From the IMG/VR virus record IMGVR_UViG_3300035670_000134: a stretch of 20,000 nt of DNA, one strand, 5' to 3'. The stretch is from an uncultured virus (IMG/VR IMGVR_UViG_3300035670_000134) (taxonomy: Duplodnaviria > Heunggongvirae > Uroviricota > Caudoviricetes). Under the pieces are notes generated by a model. The model saw only the letters and a list, made by a program, of their open reading frames with translations. It made no database searches and was not told where the DNA came from. The translations under genes and the position numbers were made by a program. Shown one piece after another: positions 1,896 to 19,021 of this stretch; the stretch's first letter is position 1; every line of letters begins with the position of its first letter.

Positions 1896-2591
1896 ATGAA
1901 CTACGGAAACAGTGTCAAGGTTTTAAACGAAGGTGCAGTATCTCTGATTGAAGTTATGGGTAGCGACTTAGATGTTGTCAATGCTGCCAGAGTTAGTTTT
2001 TCTGCATACCAAGACGAGATGAATGATAAAGCAGCGGGTCTTGTTAATTATCTTCTTAAGAATAACCATGCAACACCGTTTGAGCATGTTTTGTTTAAGT
2101 TTTACATTAAGTGCCCAATCTTTGTTGCAAGAGAATGGTTTAGGCATAGGTGGTCTTCATTCAATGAGATGAGCATGAGATACTATGTTCCAGATTCATT
2201 AGACTTCTTTTTTCCAAGTGATGAGTCTATTCGTAAGCAAGTTGGTAAGCCGGGTCATTATACGTTTGAGAAGATTGATGATCCAGCAGTTTACGATTTT
2301 GTGACAGAAAAGTTTCAAGAAGCTTACACCGTTGCTGAAAATAACTATTATGAAATGATTGAGGCTGGTATTGCAAAAGAGATTGCAAGATCAGTCCTAC
2401 CAGTTGGTCAGTACACAGAATTTGTCTGGACGGTAAATCTACGTAGTGTAATTAACTTTCTTGCGTTAAGAAATGATGAAAACGCACAGAAAGAAATTAG
2501 ACAGTATGCAGAAGTAATTGAAAACCTTATTTATGCTCATGTGCCTGTAACAATGGAATCGTTTATTAATAACGGCAGGTCAGCGATCTAA
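1896..2591 (+). CDS. thyX: Flavin-dependent thymidylate synthase
   Basis: Motifs VVNAARVS, HATPFEH, PIFVAREWFRHRWSSFNEMSMRY (ThyX RHRxxSxxxxSxRY), EIARSVLP, NLRS and AQKEIRQYA. Confidence 0.97.
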   Translation: MNYGNSVKVLNEGAVSLIEVMGSDLDVVNAARVSFSAYQDEMNDKAAGLVNYLLKNNHATPFEHVLFKFYIKCPIFVAREWFRHRWSSFNEMSMRYYVPDSLDFFFPSDESIRKQVGKPGHYTFEKIDDPAVYDFVTEKFQEAYTVAENNYYEMIEAGIAKEIARSVLPVGQYTEFVWTVNLRSVINFLALRNDENAQKEIRQYAEVIENLIYAHVPVTMESFINNGRSAI

Positions 2592-6403: not shown

Positions 6404-6935
6404 TAAGACATGGCAAGAAGCAGCCAATGAGGCTATTTCTCAAATCTACACGATGACTGTAGAAAAGAACTTTGATCAAAGCCAAACACTCGTTCGTTTT
6501 ATGCGTCATCGGTTTAATCAAGAAATTCAAAAGTTTGAATTTAATCAATCTATGACCGTAGAAACAGACCCTTCAGTCTGGAGCTTTATTGGTCGTCATG
6601 CTCTTAGGCTATTGTATCTTGAAGGATACTATCCTGCTCAAAACTATGTTGTAGAACTTTTGATTCGCAAGCAAAAGGATTATGGTCCTGAGAACATTGC
6701 CCGGTTTGGGAATGTGGGTCTTCTTATCAGAATGCACGACAAGATTGCCCGGTTAGAAAACATTCTTGAACGTTCCAAGAATAATTTCAACACGGCGGTT
6801 TCTGTCAATATGGTAGAGGACGAAACCATTATCGATACCCTTATCGATATTATCGGGTATTCGGCTATCGCTATCATGTGGTCAACAATCGATGCCGAGG
6901 GGCGGCGGGCCTTCCTTTACCGTGTGGCCGACTGA
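6390..6935 (+). CDS. DUF1599 / nucleotide-modification-associated domain 1 (Nmad1)-like protein
   Basis: RKQKDYGPENI...GLLIRMHDKIARLEN...DETIIDTLIDIIGYS matches the KxxDYG / RxxDKxxR / ExxxDTxxDxxxY pattern of this all-alpha family. Confidence 0.8.
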   Translation: MKTIDKTWQEAANEAISQIYTMTVEKNFDQSQTLVRFMRHRFNQEIQKFEFNQSMTVETDPSVWSFIGRHALRLLYLEGYYPAQNYVVELLIRKQKDYGPENIARFGNVGLLIRMHDKIARLENILERSKNNFNTAVSVNMVEDETIIDTLIDIIGYSAIAIMWSTIDAEGRRAFLYRVAD

Positions 6936-6946
6936 ACTACTAGGGA

Positions 6947-6992
6947 TTGCGTGCAATTGCGTGCAGTTGCGTGCAGTTGCGTGCAGTTGCGT
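6947..6992. repeat. Tandem 10-bp repeat GTGCAGTTGC, about 4.5 copies
   Basis: Directly visible: ttgc GTGCAATTGC GTGCAGTTGC GTGCAGTTGC GTGCAGTTGC gt, flanked by TAGGG on both sides. Confidence 0.95.
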
Positions 6993-7003: not shown

Positions 7004-7540
7004 ATGAATCTTCAATATCTTGACTTCAAATACGGCATCCGGCCTCATGAGGCCAAATGGCTTATGTCATGCGACCATCTTGCCAAAACGTTTTCAACAT
7101 GTGCGAAACGCCAATATTTTGCCGTTATCATCGGTGACAACAAACGTTTGTTATCACAAGGATACAACGGGTCACCGCCCGGCATGGGGCATTGTAACGA
7201 AGGATATTGTCCGAGATACAAAAACGGTTCCCCGTCGGGCAGCATATATGACGACTGCATCGCCACACACGCCGAAGCAAACGCCATCATGTGGGCCGAC
7301 CCGCACGCCCGCAAAGACGCCACGCTTATTATAAATGGCTCTCCCTGCTATGGATGTGCCAAATTGATAGTTAACAGCGGCATACGGCGAATTATAGGGC
7401 AATCAGACGAAACCTACGCACAAGAGCAGCACGTATACAGCTTCCTACTTCAGAACAGAATTGACACAATTCTGCTGAAGAAAAATGAAAACCGGAAAAT
7501 CCGTCAGATTATCGATCAACACATATCGTCTATCTTGTGA
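7004..7540 (+). CDS. Deoxycytidylate (dCMP) deaminase
   Basis: STCAKRQ, GYNGSPPG..HC, HAEANAI and PCYGCAKLIVNSGI zinc-deaminase motifs. Confidence 0.93.
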   Translation: MNLQYLDFKYGIRPHEAKWLMSCDHLAKTFSTCAKRQYFAVIIGDNKRLLSQGYNGSPPGMGHCNEGYCPRYKNGSPSGSIYDDCIATHAEANAIMWADPHARKDATLIINGSPCYGCAKLIVNSGIRRIIGQSDETYAQEQHVYSFLLQNRIDTILLKKNENRKIRQIIDQHISSIL

Positions 7541-7625
7541 CTCAACCTATAGCTCCCTATTCTGTAGAGCCTAACAAAACTTAAAACCAGCTCTAACCCC
7601 CCAGATTTTTCCCAAAGTCTTCCCC

Positions 7626-7650
7626 AGCCCGGCTAACCCCCGGGCTTTTT
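7626..7650 (+). terminator. Intrinsic terminator closing the AT-rich + strand operon
   Basis: AGCCCGG/CCGGGCT stem followed by a T-run. Confidence 0.7.
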
Positions 7651-7808
7651 CCATTCCCTCAAACTTCCAGCAAAACTATCCTAAGGAAACGCCGACCCAA
7701 AACAGCAAAAAAATTTAATATATATTGGAAGAGGGTAATGCGAAGGCTCCGACCCTTGTATTTACTTGTCTTACCCTGGGTCAATCACCAACAGGGTGAG
7801 ATAGGGGG

Positions 7809-7837
7809 TTGACGTTGGGCGATGGGGTCATTACGGT
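7809..7837 (+). promoter_or_regulatory. Housekeeping-sigma promoter at the start of the GC-rich block
   Basis: TTGACG-N17-TACGGT. Confidence 0.65.
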
Positions 7838-8004
7838 TCCACTCATCGAAGCCGCCCCGGGGCACCGGGCCATAGCGGCGGAGGCCGGTCGGGGCGACCG
7901 AGCACCTAGGTGCGATGCCCCCCCGATCGGGCCGGGATCTAGGTAGCCCGGTACCCTACTGGGGGCGCATGGCGATGCGCCCACGACCCCAAAGGGGGTG
8001 TCCA

Positions 8005-8403
8005 ATGGACGCACTGCTCACGCAGGGTATGTCCAAGCCGACCCGGGATGAGTACACTGCGGCCGCTACTGCGGTCACAGAGTACGCCGGGAGCGGCGCC
8101 GCATCGAACCGGTTCGCCCGGGACGCTGGCAACGTTGCGATGTTTCTCATCGCACTCACGCTGGCCGACCGGATGGATCTCGCCCCGGCCGGACTGGCCG
8201 ACCGGCGAGACTGGGTCCGGTCGGGCGGTTCGGCAGTCACGGCCCGCGACGGTGACTGGGACCGACTGGTCCCGGGCGGTTCACGACCGGACCAACGGTG
8301 CCAGCGTCGGCTTATGTCGGCACTGGCACTGCGGACCGGCCGGGCGATCCGCCTCGACTGGGTCAACGTCGATGGGACATTCTGGCTGGTCCGGACACGG
8401 TGA
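8005..8403 (+). CDS. Hypothetical protein, paralog family A copy 1
   Basis: AAAGGGGG RBS before ATG 8005. Shares SGAASNR, SRPDQxxQRRLMSALAL and RLDW...TFxxVRT with 9440-9808. Confidence 0.85.
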   Translation: MDALLTQGMSKPTRDEYTAAATAVTEYAGSGAASNRFARDAGNVAMFLIALTLADRMDLAPAGLADRRDWVRSGGSAVTARDGDWDRLVPGGSRPDQRCQRRLMSALALRTGRAIRLDWVNVDGTFWLVRTR

Positions 8404-8409
8404 CCGACG

Positions 8410-8434
8410 GTCGGGGGGGTGCGATCCCCCCGAC
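8410..8434 (+). terminator. GC-rich hairpin after family A copy 1
   Basis: GTCGGGGGG...CCCCCCGAC inverted repeat without a U-tract. Confidence 0.5.
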
Positions 8435-8506
8435 CCGGGTCACCCCGGGAGTATCGAATACCGACCGGGCGCACGGAATGCGCCCATGACCCGAAAGGGG
8501 GACGCA

Positions 8507-8794
8507 ATGTCCACACTACAGCGTATCGGGGCCGGTTTCGGCCTCGCCTGCGGCATCATCATCGCCGCTATCGGGATGGATCTCGCATGGGATACCATCG
8601 CATCGGGCGAGTTGGTCGGGGCGTTTATCGTCCTCGCATTCGTCGCCCTGCCCGGGATGGGCACGGTCGTCGGACTCACGGTCGCCATGTACCGGGAGGA
8701 CATGGCCCGGGAGAGCCGGGAGTGCTTGGGCGGTTGGCACTGCTGGTGCCCCGCCTGTACCAACTACCGCACCGGGGTGGATCTCCCCGAATGA
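8507..8794 (+). CDS. Small two-TM membrane protein with Cys/His-rich tail
   Basis: RBS GAAAGGGGG. Two hydrophobic segments followed by CLGGWHCWCPAC. Confidence 0.75.
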   Translation: MSTLQRIGAGFGLACGIIIAAIGMDLAWDTIASGELVGAFIVLAFVALPGMGTVVGLTVAMYREDMARESRECLGGWHCWCPACTNYRTGVDLPE

Positions 8795-8799
8795 CCGGA

Positions 8800-8847
8800 A
8801 CGGCCCCGGGGCTACGGCCCCGGGGCTACGGCCCCGGGGCTACGGCC
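8800..8847. repeat. Tandem 14-bp repeat ACGGCCCCGGGGCT, about 3.4 copies
   Basis: Directly visible. Each unit contains the palindrome GCCCCGGGGC. Confidence 0.95.
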
Positions 8848-8885
8848 ATGTACCGGCCAAGGTCGGGCCGGTCGAGTAGGCCAGG

Positions 8886-9158
8886 GTATCCACAACATAT
8901 CCACAGGCTGTGGACAACGGCATATCCACATGTTTGTCCACACCTGTGGAAAACCCGAGTTATCCACAAATCCACAGGGGTTGTCCACAGGCTTATCCAC
9001 AATCCACAGATTATGGGTGATATCCACAGGGTTTTCCACAACGTTACCCCCAGAATTGTCCACAACCTGTGGAAAACACTGTGTACAACCTGTGGAAAAC
9101 CCCAGGAAATCTGTGGAAAACTTTTTGTCCACAGGGTTATCCACAGCCCTGTGGAAAA
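8886..9158. promoter_or_regulatory. Dense array of about 21 DnaA-box-like 9-mers in both orientations
   Basis: TTATCCACA at 8960, 8993, 9137. TTGTCCACA at 8934, 8981, 9056, 9125 and reverse at 8909. TTTTCCACA at 9032 and reverse at 8945, 9068, 9091, 9112, 9150. Variants at 8886, 8897, 8922, 8968, 9000, 9020, 9080. Confidence 0.9.
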
Positions 9159-9439
9159 CTTTGCCGGGTGTTGGGCGACGCTCTTTCGAAATTGCGCCCA
9201 CACCCGCAACTATGTTAAGAAACACCGTTAGAAATTGAGCAAATGTAATGTTATCGAACGTTGTTATGGTACAGGTGTTGTGAAACCAATACCATTATGC
9301 AACAGCATTATGAAACCATGTTTGGATTATGGGTAGGTTTTCTGGTTGCATTTGCAATCGAGCAGAGTTTGGAATTGGCCAATCTGACTAGATAGGCTGA
9401 CCTTGTTGGTGAACAAGCGAGCCAACAGAAAGGGGAGCC

Positions 9440-9808
9440 ATGAAGGCTCACAAGGTCAGCAAGGAAGAGCAGGAGCAGGCTCTGGCTCTCTGCACAGAGT
9501 GGAAGGAGAGCGGTGCCGCTTCGAATCGGTACAAGGTGGACAAGGCGAACGTCTTGCTCACCGCTCTCGCTCTGAGCGCGACCCGGATGAAGGTCGCTCC
9601 GGCTCCGCTCGCAGAGCGTCGGGAGGCGGTGAAGAGCGGAGCGGTGGAAGCGTTCACCGCAGAGTGGGACGCTCTGGTGGAAGGTGAGAGCCGACCCGAC
9701 CAGAAGGTGCAGCGTCGGCTCATGTCGGCTCTGGCTCTCACCGGAGCGAAGGTGCGGCTCGATTGGTGCCGCATCGGGGATACCTTCTACATCGTCCGCA
9801 CCGGCTGA
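9440..9808 (+). CDS. Hypothetical protein, paralog family A copy 2
   Basis: RBS AAGGGGAG and a possible TTGGAA-N18-TAGGCT promoter upstream. Clearly homologous to 8005-8403. Confidence 0.88.
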   Translation: MKAHKVSKEEQEQALALCTEWKESGAASNRYKVDKANVLLTALALSATRMKVAPAPLAERREAVKSGAVEAFTAEWDALVEGESRPDQKVQRRLMSALALTGAKVRLDWCRIGDTFYIVRTG

Positions 9809-9830
9809 GCCGGAGCGGTACCCTCCCACA

Positions 9831-9863
9831 AGGGAGCCGGTGCTACGGCATCGGCTCCCTTTG
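9831..9863 (+). terminator. Intrinsic terminator
   Basis: AGGGAGCCGGTGC/GCATCGGCTCCCT stem followed by TT. Confidence 0.75.
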
Positions 9864-10110
9864 TCATGTACCGGTGCCAGTCGAGCCAGGATCATCCACC
9901 AACGTTTTTAACGTTAAGAAATAAGATAAGCTACGCCCACGTTTTTAACGTTAAATTATTTACGATGTTTATTATGGGGCTTTAACGTTAACTTCAGTCA
10001 GATACACTTTATGGGATTTTAATTTAACGTTACAAGAAATAGGTTGCAATTGCTTTCGAGATTTGGTTTACTACTACTGTCCCAATGTTTCCTACCAAGG
10101 AGTGTTCGAT

Positions 10111-10491
10111 ATGTCCGATTCAATCATCCCGAATGCCATCGGAATCCAAGATTGGATTACCGATTTCCCCGTCCAGATCCTTACCGTTAACAACGGCGAG
10201 GTGCACTTCAAGGTGGAAATCTTCGGCCGGATCTGCGAAGGCCGTCTCCCCGTCGATTTCTTCAAGTTCATCCCCCCCTACAACGACGGGGGGATTCTTT
10301 GTGGAGAGTGGATTTCTCCACAAGGTTGGGCATGTGCGCCTGCAGTTTGGGCGGATGATCCGTATTCGGGGAAGCCGAGTCGGGCAGATGGACCCTGTGA
10401 TTCGTGCACCAATACTGCTGATGTAATCTGCTCAACCATCAACGAAGAGAAGAGTCTGTGCCAAGACTGTTTCGAAACCTTGTTCTTGTAA
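10111..10491 (+). CDS. Hypothetical protein with C-terminal Cys cluster
   Basis: RBS AAGGAG before ATG 10111. Contains CDSC...C...LCQDC and is followed by a terminator. Confidence 0.75.
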   Translation: MSDSIIPNAIGIQDWITDFPVQILTVNNGEVHFKVEIFGRICEGRLPVDFFKFIPPYNDGGILCGEWISPQGWACAPAVWADDPYSGKPSRADGPCDSCTNTADVICSTINEEKSLCQDCFETLFL

Positions 10492-10513
10492 CCACCTACC
10501 GTTAAGAAACGGA

Positions 10514-10542
10514 AAGACCCCGGCCATCTGGCCGGGGTTTTT
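10514..10542 (+). terminator. Intrinsic terminator
   Basis: GACCCCGGCCA/TGGCCGGGGTT stem plus T-run. Confidence 0.85.
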
Positions 10543-10734
10543 CTTACGTTAAAAACATACTAACGTTAAAAAACACGTAACGTTAAAAAATGGCGGGTGC
10601 TTCGGTGCGAATACCAGCGCCTTGCACCCGTGAGTTTTTAACGTTAACCATACTGAAATTGATTATGGGATCTTAACGTTACCCTTCAGCAAATACACTT
10701 TATGAATTACCAATTTAACGATAGAAGAAAAGTA

Positions 10735-10764
10735 TTGCGTATTGGACTCGACCATGCATAAAAT
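10735..10764 (+). promoter_or_regulatory. Cassette promoter
   Basis: TTGCGT-N18-TAAAAT preceded by an A-rich tract. Confidence 0.6.
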
Positions 10765-10816
10765 GGGCGAAGCCCGGTGGGAATGGCCCACCGGCAGGAC
10801 GGAGGGAGAACCCAAC

Positions 10817-11179
10817 GTGAAGAACGGAACAGAGTACGTCAAGGTCACGAATCTGGAGAACGGTGACAGACTGGCACCGGATTTCATCGAGAAGAATGAA
10901 AAGGTCTGGACGTCCATCATCGTGACCCACAATCTGACGTTGGACGCCGACCATGTCATCGGGAACACGTTCGTTATGAATCAATTCCGCAGGCCGGAAG
11001 TGATCGTGATCGGCACCCTGCCTGCCGGTGTGGTACAGGAATCGGAGTACGGCGATGCAGGCATCGAATTGCACGTTGAGTGCCGGTGGGATTCTCTGGA
11101 GGACGGCTACCAGTGCGCGGCCCGGGGCATCGCCGCTATCCTCGACCCGGACTGCACGTTCGAGCGTTACAAGAAGTAA
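10817..11179 (+). CDS. Hypothetical protein
   Basis: GGAGGGAG RBS before GTG 10817. Bounded by a promoter and a terminator. Confidence 0.75.
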   Translation: MKNGTEYVKVTNLENGDRLAPDFIEKNEKVWTSIIVTHNLTLDADHVIGNTFVMNQFRRPEVIVIGTLPAGVVQESEYGDAGIELHVECRWDSLEDGYQCAARGIAAILDPDCTFERYKK

Positions 11180-11200
11180 TCTACCGTTAAGAACGTCAGA

Positions 11201-11232
11201 GAGGCTCCGGTCGAAAGGCCGGAGCTTTCTTT
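11201..11232 (+). terminator. Intrinsic terminator
   Basis: GGCTCCGGTC-GAAA-GGCCGGAGCT followed by TTCTTT. Confidence 0.85.
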
Positions 11233-11420
11233 GCGTTAAAAATATTCTAACGTTAAGAACATCCTAACGTTAAGAAGGCGGGTGCTTCCGTCAGAATACC
11301 ATGACATTGCACCCGCGAGTTTTTAACGTTAACTATCCTCAAGTTTATTATGTGATCTTAACGTTAATTGTCGTCGTTACCTTTATGGGGAAAATCAATC
11401 CTAACGGTAGATTGATAGAG

Positions 11421-11450
11421 TTGCTTTTTGCTTACCAATGGAACTAGGCT
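11421..11450 (+). promoter_or_regulatory. Cassette promoter
   Basis: TTGCTT-N18-TAGGCT. Confidence 0.55.
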
Positions 11451-11487
11451 AGGGATTCCAAGCAATCCCGACCCGAAAGGAACCGCA

Positions 11488-11757
11488 ATGACGAACCGCG
11501 AAATTTCCGAACTGGCTAACAACATCGTGGACAGACTCCACGAACTGGCCGAGGCAATCGATTCGGTCTACTACGAGGAGTGCGCCGATTCGGCCTGCAC
11601 CAACGCCGAGCCTCTGAACGACACGTTCCGGGTTCTCCGTCATCTTGTTGCTACCGCCGGGCTTGTTAACGCTAGCGGTCTGTGCGACCTGTACAACAAG
11701 CCCGAATGGGTCACGGCGCATGCCTTCATGACCCTTGACTACGAGTGGAACATCTGA
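11488..11757 (+). CDS. Hypothetical protein
   Basis: GAAAGGA RBS before ATG 11488. Protein begins MTNREISELANNIVDRL. Confidence 0.75.
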   Translation: MTNREISELANNIVDRLHELAEAIDSVYYEECADSACTNAEPLNDTFRVLRHLVATAGLVNASGLCDLYNKPEWVTAHAFMTLDYEWNI

Positions 11758-11776
11758 CCGTTAAAAAGGAGAAGCC

Positions 11777-11878
11777 ATGAACCACCCGTTGGGATGGGAG
11801 TTCACCGTTAACTTCTGGATCGTGGTGCTCTGTACATGGGGCATCATCGGTCTGGTACTCAGAGGGAAGGGGGACTGA
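11777..11878 (+). CDS. 33-aa single-TM peptide, not in the ORF track
   Basis: AAGGAG RBS. Translation MNHPLGWEFTVNFWIVVLCTWGIIGLVLRGKGD ends just before a terminator. Confidence 0.6.
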   Translation: MNHPLGWEFTVNFWIVVLCTWGIIGLVLRGKGD

Positions 11879-11886
11879 ACGTTAAG

Positions 11887-11915
11887 AACCCGGGGAGGTG
11901 GACCCCGGGTTTTTT
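11887..11915 (+). terminator. Intrinsic terminator
   Basis: AACCCGGGG/CCCCGGGTT stem plus T-run. Confidence 0.85.
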
Positions 11916-12089
11916 AACGCTTGAAATATTCTTAACGTTAAAAGCTGGCGGGCGTAACGTTAAACGACGCTTAACGTTACGCCCGCAGATTTTTAACGAT
12001 AAGAAAGCACAAGTTTATTATGAGATTCTAACGTTACTATTCACTTAATACACTTTATGGATTACCAATTTAACATTACAAAAAAAGTG

Positions 12090-12117
12090 TTGACTATGTA
12101 TGCCGTTCTGCTAGGAT
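12090..12117 (+). promoter_or_regulatory. Promoter for a probably leaderless transcript
   Basis: TTGACT-N16-TAGGAT with extended TGn. ATG lies 6 nt downstream with no RBS. Confidence 0.7.
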
Positions 12118-12123
12118 TCCGGT

Positions 12124-12327
12124 ATGAAGAAATGGGAGAAGGAAATAGCCGAACTAGCAGCCGAGTTCGGCAGGGCTATCGTTAAGACAAACGGTGGTCA
12201 CTACAAACTAGTTCGCCCTGGCTCTCAACCGGTGTTCGTTTCTTCCACACCATCAGACTTCAGAACGTTAAAGAATACTCGTCGGGATCTACGGCGACAT
12301 GACAACCGGGAAGGAGGTGAACGTTAA
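12124..12327 (+). CDS. HicA-like (dsRBD-fold) toxin/mRNA interferase-like protein
   Basis: 67 aa basic protein with G..IVKTNGGHYKL..PG...VFVSSTPSD.R...N.R.DLRR, the pattern of phage HicA-like proteins with the conserved His in GH. Confidence 0.7.
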   Translation: MKKWEKEIAELAAEFGRAIVKTNGGHYKLVRPGSQPVFVSSTPSDFRTLKNTRRDLRRHDNREGGER

Positions 12328-12328
12328 A

Positions 12329-12484
12329 ATGAAGAAGATGTATTACGTCTGGAATGGCTACTACGTCGAACATCAGGGCACGAAGGAGTCCTGCGAGGAG
12401 TTCATCCGTAACGCTAAGTACATGTTCGGCACGACCGGCCTGTCCATCGTCATCCAGAAGAACGGACGTTACGTCCCCGCCTGA
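12329..12484 (+). CDS. Hypothetical small protein (51 aa)
   Basis: AAGGAGG upstream. Protein begins MKKMYYVWNGYYVEH and is followed by a terminator. Confidence 0.7.
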   Translation: MKKMYYVWNGYYVEHQGTKESCEEFIRNAKYMFGTTGLSIVIQKNGRYVPA

Positions 12485-12492
12485 ACGTTAAG

Positions 12493-12526
12493 AATCCGGC
12501 TCTTACCCCCCGAGAGCCGGATTTTT
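12493..12526 (+). terminator. Intrinsic terminator
   Basis: AATCCGGCTCT/AGAGCCGGATT stem plus TTT. Confidence 0.85.
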
Positions 12527-12858
12527 AACGCTTAGACAAAAGTTAACGTTAAAATGCGGGTGTAACGTTAAGCACACCATTAACGTTACACCCGGGGTTT
12601 TTAACGTTAAGATTCGTCTGGCTTGAGTTTATGTTTTTAACGTTAGCCCGCCCTTTATGGAGCTTAACGTTAGGCAATCGACATGAGCTTTATTAACGAT
12701 AGCCGGAAGTTAACGTTACGGGGCAAACTCGACCCAGATCACCGTAATGAGATCGTAATAATCCTGTAACGTGTCTGTCACCACAAACGCAGTCGGATTA
12801 GGTATCGTTCTAGGTGTTGGGAACAAGCCCAACACAGAGCACCGAAAGGGTGACCGAC

Positions 12859-13158
12859 ATGGCAGCGAACAAGAACAACGACTGGGCATTCGAAGAGATC
12901 GACGAGAGCGAGATCACGGCCGTGCGCCGGGGGCGCAAGAGCAACGTCGATCCGGCGTTTGTGGAGGCTCTCAAGGGGATGACCCCCGGCCGGGCGATCC
13001 GCATCCCGGCGCAGGCTCTCGATCCCAAGGCACCGACCTACAAGACCGACAAGGCCCGGGTCTCGGCCTCGCTCCGCACGGCGATGCGTGCGGCCGGTCA
13101 CACGTCGTTCACGATCGTGTTCTCCCCGGAGGGTGTCCCGCAGATCCGTCTCAAGTGA
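12859..13158 (+). CDS. Small basic putative DNA-binding protein, paralog family B copy 1
   Basis: GAAAGGG RBS, 99 aa, RRGRKS motif. 72/99 identical to 14147-14446 by manual ungapped alignment. Confidence 0.88.
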   Translation: MAANKNNDWAFEEIDESEITAVRRGRKSNVDPAFVEALKGMTPGRAIRIPAQALDPKAPTYKTDKARVSASLRTAMRAAGHTSFTIVFSPEGVPQIRLK

Positions 13159-13178
13159 CCCCCCATCCCCCCCCGGAC

Positions 13179-13208
13179 AGCCCCCGGCCAACAGGCCGGG
13201 GGTTTGTT
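13179..13208 (+). terminator. Intrinsic terminator
   Basis: GCCCCCGGCC/GGCCGGGGGT stem plus TTGTT. Confidence 0.8.
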
Positions 13209-13446
13209 CGTGGTCGAGTACTCCTAACGTTAAGAACCTCCTAACGTTAATTTTTTTTGACGATAGAATCTTAACGTTAAAGACTCATTCCTTAACGTTA
13301 AGAACGGCGGGCGTAACCGTAACAACAAGTAGTGTTACGCCCGTGGATTTTTAACGTTAAATGTTGCTATCTTTATTATGTGTTTTTAACGTTAAACCTT
13401 AGCCATAAACTTTACACCTCGACCAATTAACATTAGAAAAAAAGGC

Positions 13447-13474
13447 TTGTGATCCTGGCCTAATCTGATAACCT
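13447..13474 (+). promoter_or_regulatory. Promoter for a probably leaderless transcript
   Basis: TTGTGA-N16-TAACCT with TGn. ATG lies 6 nt downstream, the same geometry as 12090-12124 (both end GGT-ATG). Confidence 0.6.
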
Positions 13475-13480
13475 ACTGGT

Positions 13481-13795
13481 ATGCGAATGAGTGAACGTAC
13501 CCCATGTCAGAACTGCGGTCTCCGGATGGCCGTCCCCGCTGTGCTCTGCACCCGCTGTGCGGCGTCCAGAGAGATTCGGGAACAGTTTAACGTTTGGACT
13601 CCGGCCGACCTTGACCTGACCGACCTGACCCATACCGAGCGCATGCTCGCATTCATCTATTGCGTGACCGGTGACATTTCCGACTACTTCGATCACTTTG
13701 TCGTTAAGAACGACGAGGTCGAGGAAGAGGACACTCTTAACGTTTCGATCAGGTACTGTGATAATCGGATTAACTTCGGTAAATACAGGGCATAG
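13481..13795 (+). CDS. Hypothetical zinc-ribbon protein
   Basis: CQNC-x10-CTRC. Bounded by a promoter and a terminator hairpin at 13808-13835. Confidence 0.75.
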   Translation: MRMSERTPCQNCGLRMAVPAVLCTRCAASREIREQFNVWTPADLDLTDLTHTERMLAFIYCVTGDISDYFDHFVVKNDEVEEEDTLNVSIRYCDNRINFGKYRA

Positions 13796-14146
13796 TCCTA
13801 CCGTTAAAAACCCCGGCATCCAGTCGGGGCTTTTTAACGCTTAAAAATATGTTAACGTTAAAATCGGAGGGTGTAACGTTAAAAGCCCTTAACGTTACAC
13901 CCGAGCGGTTTTTAACGTTAAGATTATGAAGTTGAGTATGAATTCTTAACGTTAACCCGGCCTTTATGGGACTTAACGTTAACCAATCTCTTTATGAGCT
14001 CTTAACGATACATACTCGACCGCACTCGACCGCCTCCTGGTTGCATTTGCAACTATCGGATAGGGTGGAAATGTTGGGATGGGCGATAGCGTTTCCAATG
14101 TCACCTAAGGGACTGAAACGGAAGTAGGTCCAGAACGGAGAATGAC

Positions 14147-14446
14147 ATGGCAGGAAAGACGACTCACGGATGGGACTTCGAGGAGATCCCTGAGGACGAG
14201 ATTCAGGCGGTCAGGCGTGGACGGAAGTCCAACGTGGACCCGGCTCTGGTGGACGGACTGCGGACCCTCACGCCGGGTCGCGCCATCCGCATCCCCTCGC
14301 AGAAGTTGGACCCGACCGCGGCCAACTACCGGACGGAGAAGGCGCGCGTGTCCGCATCCCTGCGGGTCGCCATGCGCGCGGCGGGGCACACCTCCTTCGC
14401 CATCATCTTCTCGCCCGACGGCGTTCCGCAGATTCGCCTGAAGTGA
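14147..14446 (+). CDS. Small basic putative DNA-binding protein, paralog family B copy 2
   Basis: GGAG RBS, 99 aa, homologous to 12859-13158. Confidence 0.88.
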   Translation: MAGKTTHGWDFEEIPEDEIQAVRRGRKSNVDPALVDGLRTLTPGRAIRIPSQKLDPTAANYRTEKARVSASLRVAMRAAGHTSFAIIFSPDGVPQIRLK

Positions 14447-14453
14447 CCGGTGT

Positions 14454-14483
14454 GCCGGTGAGGGTCGAGTGACCCTCACCGGC
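14454..14483 (+). terminator. 13-bp perfect hairpin after family B copy 2
   Basis: GCCGGTGAGGGTC-GAGT-GACCCTCACCGGC. Confidence 0.7.
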
Positions 14484-15594
14484 CAGGGTCTACCGTTAAA
14501 TTTTTTTTCGGTCGAGTTTCTTAACGTTAAAAGCCAGGGGAGAAGAAGTTAACGTTAAGAAACAACCCGAGTCAGAACTTAACGTTAAGAACCGGCGGGC
14601 GTGACCGATTGATCGGTGAAATGACACGCCCGTTTATTTTTAACGTTAAGAATTCAAAAAGTTTAATGTATTTCCTAATCCGTTTTCTCATCATTTATCC
14701 AATCTATTAATTCTAATTACCTTTATGGGTAACGTTATGCTAATACTGGTTCGTTTTTAACGTTAAGAATGGGTTCAGGTGGAGTATGCGGTCTTAACGT
14801 TAAGTTCCTATGACTGATCTATTCCCTTACTCAATCCCTTATCTCTTGTTACCTTTATGCTCGACCTATATAGGGAGCAGTATAGGTAGCAGTATAGGTA
14901 CCTAAACCCTGGCGGATTAGATGTCTATATCTCTAGGGAATAAGAACACTTAATAGACCCCCAAAATCCCCCGCAACTTTCGTTGTATATATCATCGTTG
15001 TAATTTGGACTAATAGGGTCATTAAATCGATCACCGTCCAAATCGACACATTTCCCCCCACATTTGCCGGTTGTACGATAGTTATATCTATCAGTTCTTT
15101 TTTTATTTAACGTAGATCCCTTTATGGGCGTACCTACACTACGTTAGGTTACTGAAGACATAGATAAACCCTTACCCAACCCGGCCGGGTTAAAGTGTTC
15201 TTCTTCCTATATAGGGGTATACACACAACCAATAAGCCTATCTATTAATTTACCTAGGGATAGATAAAAAAAGGCGGGTTAAGTGTTTCTATTCTCCTAT
15301 ATAGGGGAGAACACAACACCTAACCCGCCTAATTTCTTAAAACTGTTAAAAATCCCTAGGAAAATAACAAAAAGCGTACCTTTCTGAGCAAAAACACCAG
15401 CAAATTCAACACATCCTGAGCTTTATTGTGCACATAAACCGAGAACGCTGGACACGTTTAGGGTATTTGCTGTATCAATCTATGAAGGAATTAATAGAGG
15501 TGTATCGATATCTGGGGAGTGTAGATACATCTATCTATGTATGTTCCTATATACATAATACCTACCCTAACCCCGCCGGGGTTCGTACCTCTAT

Positions 15595-18948: not shown

Positions 18949-19021
18949 TGCCTCTGGCAGGAGTCGAACCTGCGATCATCAGATTAGAAGTCTGTTGCTT
19001 TATCCTCTAAGCTACAGAGGC
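18949..19021 (-). tRNA. tRNA-Arg(TCT)
   Basis: Minus strand GCCTCTGTAGCTTAGAGGATAAAGCAACAGACTTCTAATCTGATGATCGCAGGTTCGACTCCTGCCAGAGGCA. Acceptor stem GCCTCTG/CAGAGGC, GGTTCGACTCC T-arm, anticodon loop CT-TCT-AA. CCA is not encoded. Confidence 0.93.

Follow-up and report, generated by a model that had tools for sequence, protein, structure and literature searches.

The window analyzed here is a 20,000-nucleotide stretch of DNA, taken at its full length, from the uncultured virus IMGVR_UViG_3300035670_000134 (Duplodnaviria; Heunggongvirae; Uroviricota; Caudoviricetes). It carries an array of twelve small, GC-rich open reading frames (ORFs), A to L. The flanks of the window are AT-rich, at about 37–44% GC, and carry phage genes; the phage overall lies at ~40% GC, and the block from 7560 to 14900 reaches up to 69%. 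The spacers of the array share a layout in which a GC-clamped hairpin, H2, stands behind a terminator-like stem, T1, and before a promoter-like site, P1. H2 is the subject of this analysis, and the coordinates of its copies and of the accompanying features are collected in Table 1.

The clamp pattern used to search for H2, CGGGYG-N15-35-CRCCCG, has seven matches in the window against 0.03 expected, a number reached by none of 200 shuffles; all seven lie within 9165–14632, with none in the remaining 14.5 kb. A sequence-only reading of this DNA had listed seven hairpins closed by CGGG(T/C)G and C(A/G)CCCG. All seven are real, and six coincide with clamp-pattern matches give or take one base. The copy placed at 13869–13902 is likewise a hairpin but is not closed by CGGG: its left clamp begins AGGGTG, so that the basal C-G pair is lost, and its stem is shifted by one base. 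With the copy directly 3' of the DnaA-box-like cluster, H2-0, the window holds eight H2 hairpins, plus a decayed ninth near 9932; the place of the decayed one is occupied by a complete hairpin in a contig of run X8 (joint 11273->9932). H2-0 has no T-run or box behind it, unlike the other window copies, each of which is followed after 3–6 nucleotides (nt) by TTTTTAACG, the T-run and AACG that had been described for them; the position of H2-0 is kept in five relatives introduced below (L084, L089, L179, L169 and L181). Near-identical copies of H2-7 occur in three others (L127, L143 and L155). In RNA folding all eight hairpins reach z scores of −4.1 to −7.7, with none of 200 shuffles as good for any of them, and DNA folding gives z scores of −2.7 to −8.0 against shuffles.

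The co-variation of T/C in the left arm with A/G in the right holds in all eight copies, and the loop GAATACCA is indeed common to the copies at 10594 and 11279, over different inner stems. Three copies carry TAACGTTAA in both arms and form 16, 15 and 14 perfect pairs, as had been noted. These three stems consist of two palindromic boxes 16–18 nt apart, bracketed by the clamp. Because a pair of such boxes automatically forms an inverted repeat, the long TAACGTTAA stems are a by-product of the boxes and add no evidence for structure; the evidence for structure comes from the clamp and from the interiors that lack boxes.

The same layout is visible across all eight window spacers. Behind the stop codon lie a half-box, (C)CGTTAAGAA, and then T1, a canonical GC stem with a T-run immediately 3'. 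One to four copies of a 10-bp palindrome, TTAACGTTAA, often 17 nt apart, lead up to H2. Behind H2 come TTTTTAACGTTAA, 3–6 nt on (a T-run of T4–7), and TTTATTATG, about 15–17 nt further, then another box, an oriented CTTTATG motif and a degenerate box. A −35/−10-like pair near the start codon completes the series; for gene H it reads TTGACT-N16-TAGGAT and lies 6 nt before the ATG. The box behind H2 doubles as the −35 element of the predicted P1, and the promoter motif that accompanies T1 and H2 is predicted by scan to be of the host type, with a sigma70-like consensus. The palindrome is the dominant repeat of the array: TAACGTTA occurs 43 times in the window against 0.28 expected, with three to six boxes per spacer, those to the left of H2 bearing an AAGAA/AAAAA tail and those to the right a TTTTT head. 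The spacer motifs are strongly oriented with the genes and nearly absent outside the block: CGTTAAGAA is found 14 times in the direction of the genes and 3 times as its complement, and CTTTATG/CTTTATT 10 times forward and never in reverse between 9800 and 15150.

Table 1. Coordinates of the H2 hairpins, spacer elements and neighboring genes in the window.
Feature	Position	Strand	Remarks
H2-0	9165..9206	+	missed by the sequence-only reading; directly 3' of DnaA-box-like cluster; RNA −23 kcal/mol, z −4.07
Decayed H2	9932..9953	+	right arm CGCCCA only, plus TTTTTAACGTTAA
H2-1, type a	10594..10630	+	clamp, internal loop, 5-bp inner stem, loop GAATACCA; z −4.36
H2-2, type a	11279..11315	+	loop GAATACCA as in H2-1, different inner stem GTCA/TGAC; z −4.89
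H2-3, type b	11949..11985	+	clamp and two palindromic boxes, 16 perfect pairs; scored terminator-like; z −6.33
H2-4, type b	12557..12594	+	15 perfect pairs; z −5.97
H2-5, decayed type b	13308..13343	+	10-bp basal stem; z −4.45
H2-6, type b	13870..13903	+	14 pairs, GGGTG...CACCC; z −7.72
H2-7	14596..14632	+	8-bp clamp, side hairpin ACCGA/TCGGT; z −4.49
T1 of gene D	10517..10538	+	GC stem and adjoining T-run
Further T1 copies	9832-9859, 11201-11228, 11889-11909, 12495-12521, 13181-13202, 13811-13829		
P1 promoter-like site TTAACG-N17-TATTAT	11323..11351	+	consensus scan only; −35 is the box directly behind H2-2
Further P1 motifs	11993-12021, 13351-13379		consensus scan, sigma70-like
42 palindromic boxes TAACGTTA(A)	9909..14802	.	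array
Array of 12 small GC-rich ORFs, A–L	8005..14446	+	none with a named function
DnaA-box-like word cluster	8880..9165	.	between genes B and C; conserved in relatives
ThyX-like gene	1896-2591		named from annotated phage matches
dCMP deaminase	7004-7540		
Family-4 glycosyltransferase		−	
tRNA	18949-19021		sole Rfam match above gathering score

Relatives of the array were sought in viral contigs, prokaryote genomes and metagenomes. Scans of viral contigs yielded two related contigs only, L084 and L089: one of 22 loci found with the hairpin pattern was real, as were two of 28 found with the promoter pattern, both previously found, and a two-box scan returned 53 loci, of which the seven richest in boxes were inspected and had no clamp hairpin. 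The identity of a neighboring protein is 58% in L084 and 36% in L089, and both contigs have the order dCMP deaminase, GC-rich ORFan block, DnaA-box cluster, GC-clamped hairpin, T-run, box and TTTATTATG; later spacers of L089 have a box variant, CTAACGTTAG, and hairpins of quite different sequence at the same place. The combination of clamp, T-run and box gave four single chance matches and no true copies in 596 Gb of prokaryote genomes. In metagenomes it gave 60 loci, 56 of them true relatives with box arrays, at up to seven matches per contig, and the phage group is widespread in aquatic and subsurface metagenomes. The nearest virus record, G001, is near-identical to the window (84% of words in common), about 23% complete and has the same hairpins.

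With overlaps removed, the working set comprised 39 contigs, the window, L084 and L089, together 147 kb, in which homologs of the window genes were found by tblastn of the window proteins. It provided 54 distinct hairpins in 44 interior classes for analysis of the Y:R pair of the clamp, and 63 curated distinct hairpins for typing. The latter divide into 17 of type a, with an 8-nt loop, 16 of type b, built from two boxes, and 30 others; they have a median of 13 pairs (up to 19) and a median stability of −20 kcal/mol, and the H2 interior varies in length from 24 to 46 nt.

Several further observations concern the boxes and the CTTTAT motif. The box variants of relatives include, besides that of L089, non-palindromic TTAAGGTTAA/TTAACCTTAA in L153 and L183. 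Half-boxes, CGTTAAGAA or CGTTAAAA, occur behind stop codons, at the intra-operon junctions F–G and H–I, and inside some coding sequences. Across the 147 kb of oriented relatives CTTTAT is found 288 times forward and 36 times in reverse, typically 16–24 nt behind a box; because it does not fit a TAnnnT −10 element, it may be a site for another factor. In an AT-rich viral contig, L050, a single intergenic region (2677–2810) contains six TAACGTTAA(A) boxes, flanked as in the window, and no clamp hairpin, and the viruses L044, L053, L042 and L080 have clusters of their own of the same 8-mer.

The relatives make it possible to ask which neighbor each of the two spacer hairpins accompanies. H2 stands directly upstream of 29 of 31 distinct P1 motifs. 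Among them is the P1 that comes first behind the DnaA-box cluster, at a place remote from any gene end; only the decayed copy of the window and one site in L150 depart from the rule. By a strict scan, 34 of 59 H2 hairpins have a T1-like terminator no more than 200 nt upstream. Ten of the other 25 were inspected, and in all ten a GC hairpin follows the stop codon, its T-run being weak or displaced in several. Because P1 is coupled to H2 in this way and T1-like hairpins stand behind stop codons, the two hairpins of a spacer can be assigned separately, T1 to the end of the gene and H2 to the promoter.

The wider set also bears out the proposal of the sequence-only reading that structure, and not just sequence, is selected. 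The search pattern for relatives admitted all four combinations of Y and R, and the 54 distinct hairpins have T-A in 33 cases, C-G in 17, C.A in 3 and T.G in 1 (Fisher p 4e-10), although the copies are related by descent and such p-values overstate their independence. The pair is thus of Watson-Crick type in 50 of 54, and two of the three C.A cases are register artefacts. The clamp itself has compensatory variants, GTGGGTG/CACCCAC and GCGGATG/CATCCGC. Among 19 pairs of close variants, differences amount to 0.317 per unpaired position versus 0.072 per paired position, a 4.4-fold ratio, and 10 of 13 two-sided changes keep the pair. An alignment of 28 hairpins of equal length contains 31 two-sided changed cells, against 18.0 ± 3.5 in shuffles, none of 500 of which reach 31; 70.9% of its cells are paired, versus 32–52% with a slid partner, and the basal seven pairs are formed in every row. 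The interiors, while varying in sequence and length, remain self-complementary, and the GAATACCA loop of type a is invariant in this wider set. A symmetric 14-pair structure for hairpin alignment A3 was rejected, as only the basal eight pairs fit and internal loops offset the inner stems. Kinship of the copies limits the p-values, yet the direction is uniform across the pairing tests, and selection for H2 pairing is well supported by these comparisons.

The order of the cassettes differs between related phages. Comparison of the window with DNA contigs of four runs revealed joints in freshwater and lake runs. Contigs of runs X6 and X8 have joints at 10600->11290, 11285->11982, 11943->13334 and others, all inside spacers, although short-read contigs can be chimeric at repeats and some of these joints may be chimeras. 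One joint skips 689 nt, from inside H2-1 to inside H2-2, so that cassette E is absent; another leads from H2-2 to the end of H2-3 with a new interior between them, in which pairing is perfect and the loop GAATACCA is kept. Other joints connect H2-3 with H2-5, T1 with T1, or points within the promoter region, and in one variant precisely the coding part of gene D is replaced. Homologs of the window genes follow one another in a mosaic of orders: C D / E / F G / H I / J / K / L in the window, K // F G / H L L in L153, C / F /// J L in L143 and K H / F in L126 (slashes as separators). The breakpoints are scattered over the spacer, in H2, T1, the boxes and the promoter region, which fits homologous exchange between repeats and not a fixed site. 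A search for the tyrosine recombinase family PF00589 gave no match in three virus records (G001–G003), which are 20–55% complete, so that absence is not proven; PF04542 and PF00940 were also without a match in these partial records, PF00940, which served as a control, matching nowhere.

The reading of H2 that we favor, although our confidence in it is only evenly poised, is that it forms the stem-loop half of a terminator-promoter cassette resembling the PeSL elements of T4-type phages, acts as a second intrinsic terminator, and lies in spacers that serve as recombination seams. PeSLs are described as a stem-loop with a G-run and a C-run, followed by AT-rich sequence and a strong early promoter that is sigma70-like (PMC2839356, Arbiol et al. 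2010). As part of this explanation, the array would consist of small early ORFan genes of the host-takeover type in an AT-rich, actinophage-like virus. RNA that escapes T1 would fold into H2, whose GC clamp, extended by G.U pairing and placed 1–3 nt before a U-run, would act as the second terminator, and this stop would keep upstream read-through away from the early promoter that follows. The repeated spacers, of which H2 is a part, would at the same time offer short homologies through which cassettes could be lost, gained and reordered between related phages. Among the three functions that the sequence-only reading had put forward, a second terminator class fits best, given the GC clamp, the distance to the T-run and a modest bias to the + strand, and termination is predicted from these features.

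The strand data are consistent with an RNA hairpin of the + strand that ends in a U-run. The T-run begins 1–3 nt after the G.U-extended stem in 49 of the 63 curated hairpins, in a set that is anchored on the T-run and has it by construction. Two of the eight window H2 hairpins pass a terminator scan. With 3-nt flanks included, G.U pairs number 52 on the + strand versus 31 on the − strand (p 0.03) and the + strand is the more stable in 38 hairpins versus 22 (Wilcoxon p 0.007), a lean that arises because of the basal G.U adjoining the T-run; among the 28 aligned hairpins, 17 have G.U as their outer pair and 9 have G-C. As a control, 17 T1 stems have 8 G.U pairs on the + and 3 on the − strand. 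On the minus side, 26 of the 63 hairpins are without a T-run.

A number of points, besides the kinship of the copies and the possible chimeric joints already mentioned, weigh against this reading. A second terminator is not obviously needed, because T1 is already terminator-like in most spacers. Only three of the eight window P1 sites pass the promoter scan threshold. The hairpin core, compared between strands, has 20 G.U pairs on + versus 26 on −, and − is the more stable in 30 cases versus 21. The gap between stem and T-run is 1–5 nt, and apical loops of 10–23 nt, present in 10 of 63 hairpins, are poor for termination. The T-run may be part of the promoter and not of a terminator, because it also stands 5' of boxes that have no hairpin at all. 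Finally, the loop GAATACCA of type a does not vary, although the pair that closes it covaries (CG 13, AU 4, UA 1), and with respect to transcription the loop is found in either orientation, 9 versus 17; a plain terminator does not explain an invariant loop that is free in its orientation.

The occurrence of GAATACCA in both orientations speaks for a reading at the level of DNA, which is the main rival, although we regard it as unlikely. H2 would then act as a cruciform or single-strand hairpin, and a phage or host protein would recognize its conserved base (and in type a also the 8-nt loop); it could serve in structure-specific recombination of cassettes, as a supercoil sink beside a strong promoter, or as a priming or nicking site. 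The conserved base around interiors of 24–46 nt keeps its geometry only when folded, and the core stems are almost purely Watson-Crick and without strand bias, although 17 of 28 end on the outside in a + strand G.U and the flanks favor the + strand. Of 32 occurrences of GAATACCA, 26 lie within H2 loops, and alignment A3 has rows with either orientation on the same outer scaffold, so that the loop is invariant over covarying stems whichever way it points; against this, flips of hairpin loops can arise as mutational micro-inversions, as in chloroplast genomes. The flanks are partly symmetric, with box and A-run on the left and T-run and box on the right, but this symmetry is incomplete, as the 26 hairpins without a minus-side T-run illustrate, and the 10 hairpins with loops of 10–23 nt would extrude poorly from duplex DNA. 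Several variant joints fall inside H2, and the PeSL report includes the speculation that the stem-loop is a target of recombination proteins (PMC2839356); breakpoints also fall in T1, the boxes and the promoter region, however, fitting general homologous exchange, and a recombinase was not found in the three partial records (20–55% complete). We consider doubtful the more specific proposal that the folded clamp or loop is read by a protein on either strand which catalyzes or stimulates exchange of self-contained early-gene cassettes; if true, it would amount to a structure-specific, integrase-free counterpart of the integron attC site in a lytic phage.

It appears improbable that H2 is a processing site of the RNase III type, a 3'-stabilizing hairpin in read-through early transcripts. 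The stems are long enough for this, with their median of 13 pairs and maximum of 19, and flanking box and A-run could pair with T-run and box to lengthen them to >25 bp; there is one hairpin per spacer of an early-type array, and type a consists of a lower stem, an internal loop and an upper stem. Little RNA should arrive at H2 behind a canonical terminator, however, and its ties are to the downstream promoter motif and not to the upstream gene end; loops in both orientations would also be unexpected for an RNA site. Phage T7 has RNase III-cut hairpins between its early genes and is not known to have terminators there. H2 is like them in the single irregular hairpin per spacer of an early block and in the architecture of type a, and unlike them in lying behind a terminator and directly before a promoter.

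That H2 is a functionless by-product of adjacent palindromic boxes is most improbable. The stems of 16 of the 63 hairpins are two boxes 16–18 nt apart, the spacing of tandem boxes outside hairpins, and one window spacer has lost the left arm; but the 47 box-free stems still pair, the clamps covary, and paired positions change 4.4 times less than unpaired ones.

The analogy to attC sites drawn by the sequence-only reading holds in form and fails in the features of membership that were tested, and we give very little credence to H2 as the attC-like site of an integron-like system, folded as a single strand and used by a site-specific recombinase. Like attC, H2 has a conserved hairpin base around a self-complementary centre of variable sequence and length, and it occurs once per cassette in arrays of mosaic content. 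Core sites of attC read RYYYAAC ... GTTRRRY, which the AAC and GTT halves of the box recall; GTTRRRY, read by eye, stands behind only one or two of seven window copies, and the box, a full palindrome, occurs three to six times per spacer and not once on each side. H2 is further unlike attC in that it has no consistent extrahelical bases: type b stems are perfect over 14–19 pairs and no bulge is conserved across types. The cassettes carry promoter-like sites and terminators of their own, the breakpoints are at no single fixed position, and PF00589 is unmatched in G001–G003 (only 20–55% complete).

Equally little credence goes to the idea that H2 ends or encodes a small RNA from the region between T1 and H2, since its stable hairpin, following T-run and conservation in relatives are met by an interval of about 30 to 130 nt that contains boxes only, with no + strand promoter-like site, by −10-like TAAAAT words in two spacers that would start a transcript inside the left arm, and by Rfam, where none of six weak matches obtained in E-value mode overlaps H2 and the tRNA alone passes the gathering score. 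The possibility that H2 is a 5' leader hairpin, transcribed from a promoter upstream of it, was likewise considered and rejected, the only −10-like words being placed so that RNA would start inside the left arm.

The genes of the array offer few clues to their roles. Pfam families matched none of the 12 ORFs, and a PHROG match was obtained for one of them, H, to a family of unknown function; A/C and J/L are paralog pairs. Similarity of the window to cultured phages at the DNA level is weak, covering 1–3% of the query in the left flank, and involves Streptomyces and Gordonia phages and an Actinomycetia phage, and a comparison of the array with 50,697 phage records (megablast and blastn) found zero relatives. 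J (12859–13158) and L (14147–14446) represent the cassette family that is found most widely; metagenome contigs contain 22 distinct homologs, frequently paired side by side. The J/L protein may be the regulator that binds the boxes. An AlphaFold model of this family (pLDDT 81.7) had zero matches to PDB folds at E <= 0.001, and protein L used as a locus query matched 62 stretches, of which none was confirmed. Genes H and K have −10-like hexamers, TAGGAT (in 12090–12126) and TAACCT (in 13440–13483), 6 nt 5' of the ATG, a placement that suggests leaderless mRNAs, which are common in actinobacteria.

Other features of the surroundings may be noted. The cluster at 8880–9165 is dense in words of the TTATCCACA, TTGTCCACA and TGTGGAAAA types, which resemble DnaA boxes, and such a cluster followed by an H2 hairpin is also present in L084, L089, L179, L142, L164, L169 and L181. 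Two tandem repeats, both perfect or near-perfect, lie nearby: TTGCGTGCAG x4.6 at 6947–6992, in the gap from the ORF end at 6935 to the deaminase gene, and ACGGCCCCGGGGCT x3.4 at 8800–8847, directly behind gene B. From 14650 to 15450, between the array and the converging minus-strand genes, extends a non-coding stretch with a repeat set of its own, including direct and inverted repeats of the CCTATATAGGGG type (14865, 15205 and 15295), TATAGGTAGCAG x2.7 at 14869–14900 and an inverted repeat that spans 15267–15335; the stretch may represent a genome end, an origin or a control site of the late region. The GC contrast of the window is also seen 3' of the dCMP deaminase gene in L084 and L089, and the early genes are possibly tuned to a GC-rich host, with later genes leaning on phage tRNAs.

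Extragenic palindromes of the REP/BIME type are spread over intergenic regions genome-wide. H2 is unlike them in this respect, as its matches in the window are confined to 9165–14632, with none in the other 14.5 kb or in the 596 Gb of prokaryote genomes. The context of the array has a parallel in the first-step-transfer region of phage T5, described as containing early genes beside untranslated repeats, inverted repeats, palindromes and 8 DnaA boxes (Davison, bioRxiv 10.1101/866236). As in that injection-stop region, an early-gene block here adjoins a DnaA-box cluster and repeats; this is a likeness of context only. With tandem or bidirectional Rho-independent terminators H2 shares the GC-rich base of the stem, the downstream T-run and, often, an upstream A-run, and its place behind another terminator at a gene end is that of the second member of a tandem pair. 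It differs from them in the gap of 1–5 nt between stem and T-run, in its long stems, in a clamp sequence conserved across copies and genomes, and in being tied to a downstream promoter even where no gene end is near.

The closest parallel is with the PeSLs. These are reported to be repeated between ORFans of hyperplastic regions, and one stem-loop that was tested terminates transcription (PMC2839356; PMC4122927, Comeau et al. 2014); recombination between PeSLs is reported to produce indels and mini-circles (PMC2839356; PMC4122927). The repeats of the array are likewise intergenic and lie in a plastic region of small ORFans; the clamp GGCGGGYG/CRCCCGCC, the T4–7 run and TTAACG-N17-TATTAT correspond to the PeSL parts, and the indels and swaps that separate related phages have their crossovers within the repeats, some possibly in chimeric contigs. 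In contrast to PeSLs, the array belongs to a lineage with weak matches to actinophages that is not T4-like, and the comparison with 50,697 phage records gave it no homology to described PeSLs; a separate canonical T1 precedes the stem-loop, giving two hairpins per spacer, and a 10-bp palindromic box fills the spacers and supplies the −35 element. The interiors are long, diverse and partly built from boxes, the 8-nt loop of one subclass is invariant and can point either way, and, where mini-circles and termination are reported for PeSLs, termination by H2 is a prediction. H2 together with P1 would thus be a PeSL by layout and population behavior, and not by descent.

These results would extend the PeSL idea, in which repeated terminator-promoter modules insulate tiny early genes and act as swapping seams, to an unrelated group of uncultured phages. 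The at least 54 distinct hairpins, in 44 interior classes, provide a natural variant set for what makes a phage insulator work, and the orientation-free loop, the 43-copy box and the GC-rich ORFan block beside a DnaA-box cluster are leads to host takeover, here a question of AT-rich phage DNA in a probably GC-rich host. Taken together, our analysis suggests that the design of the array is most likely a variant of an arrangement already known from T4-like phages; it differs from that arrangement in the separate T1, the palindromic box as both filler and −35 element, the diverse interiors and the orientation-free loop.

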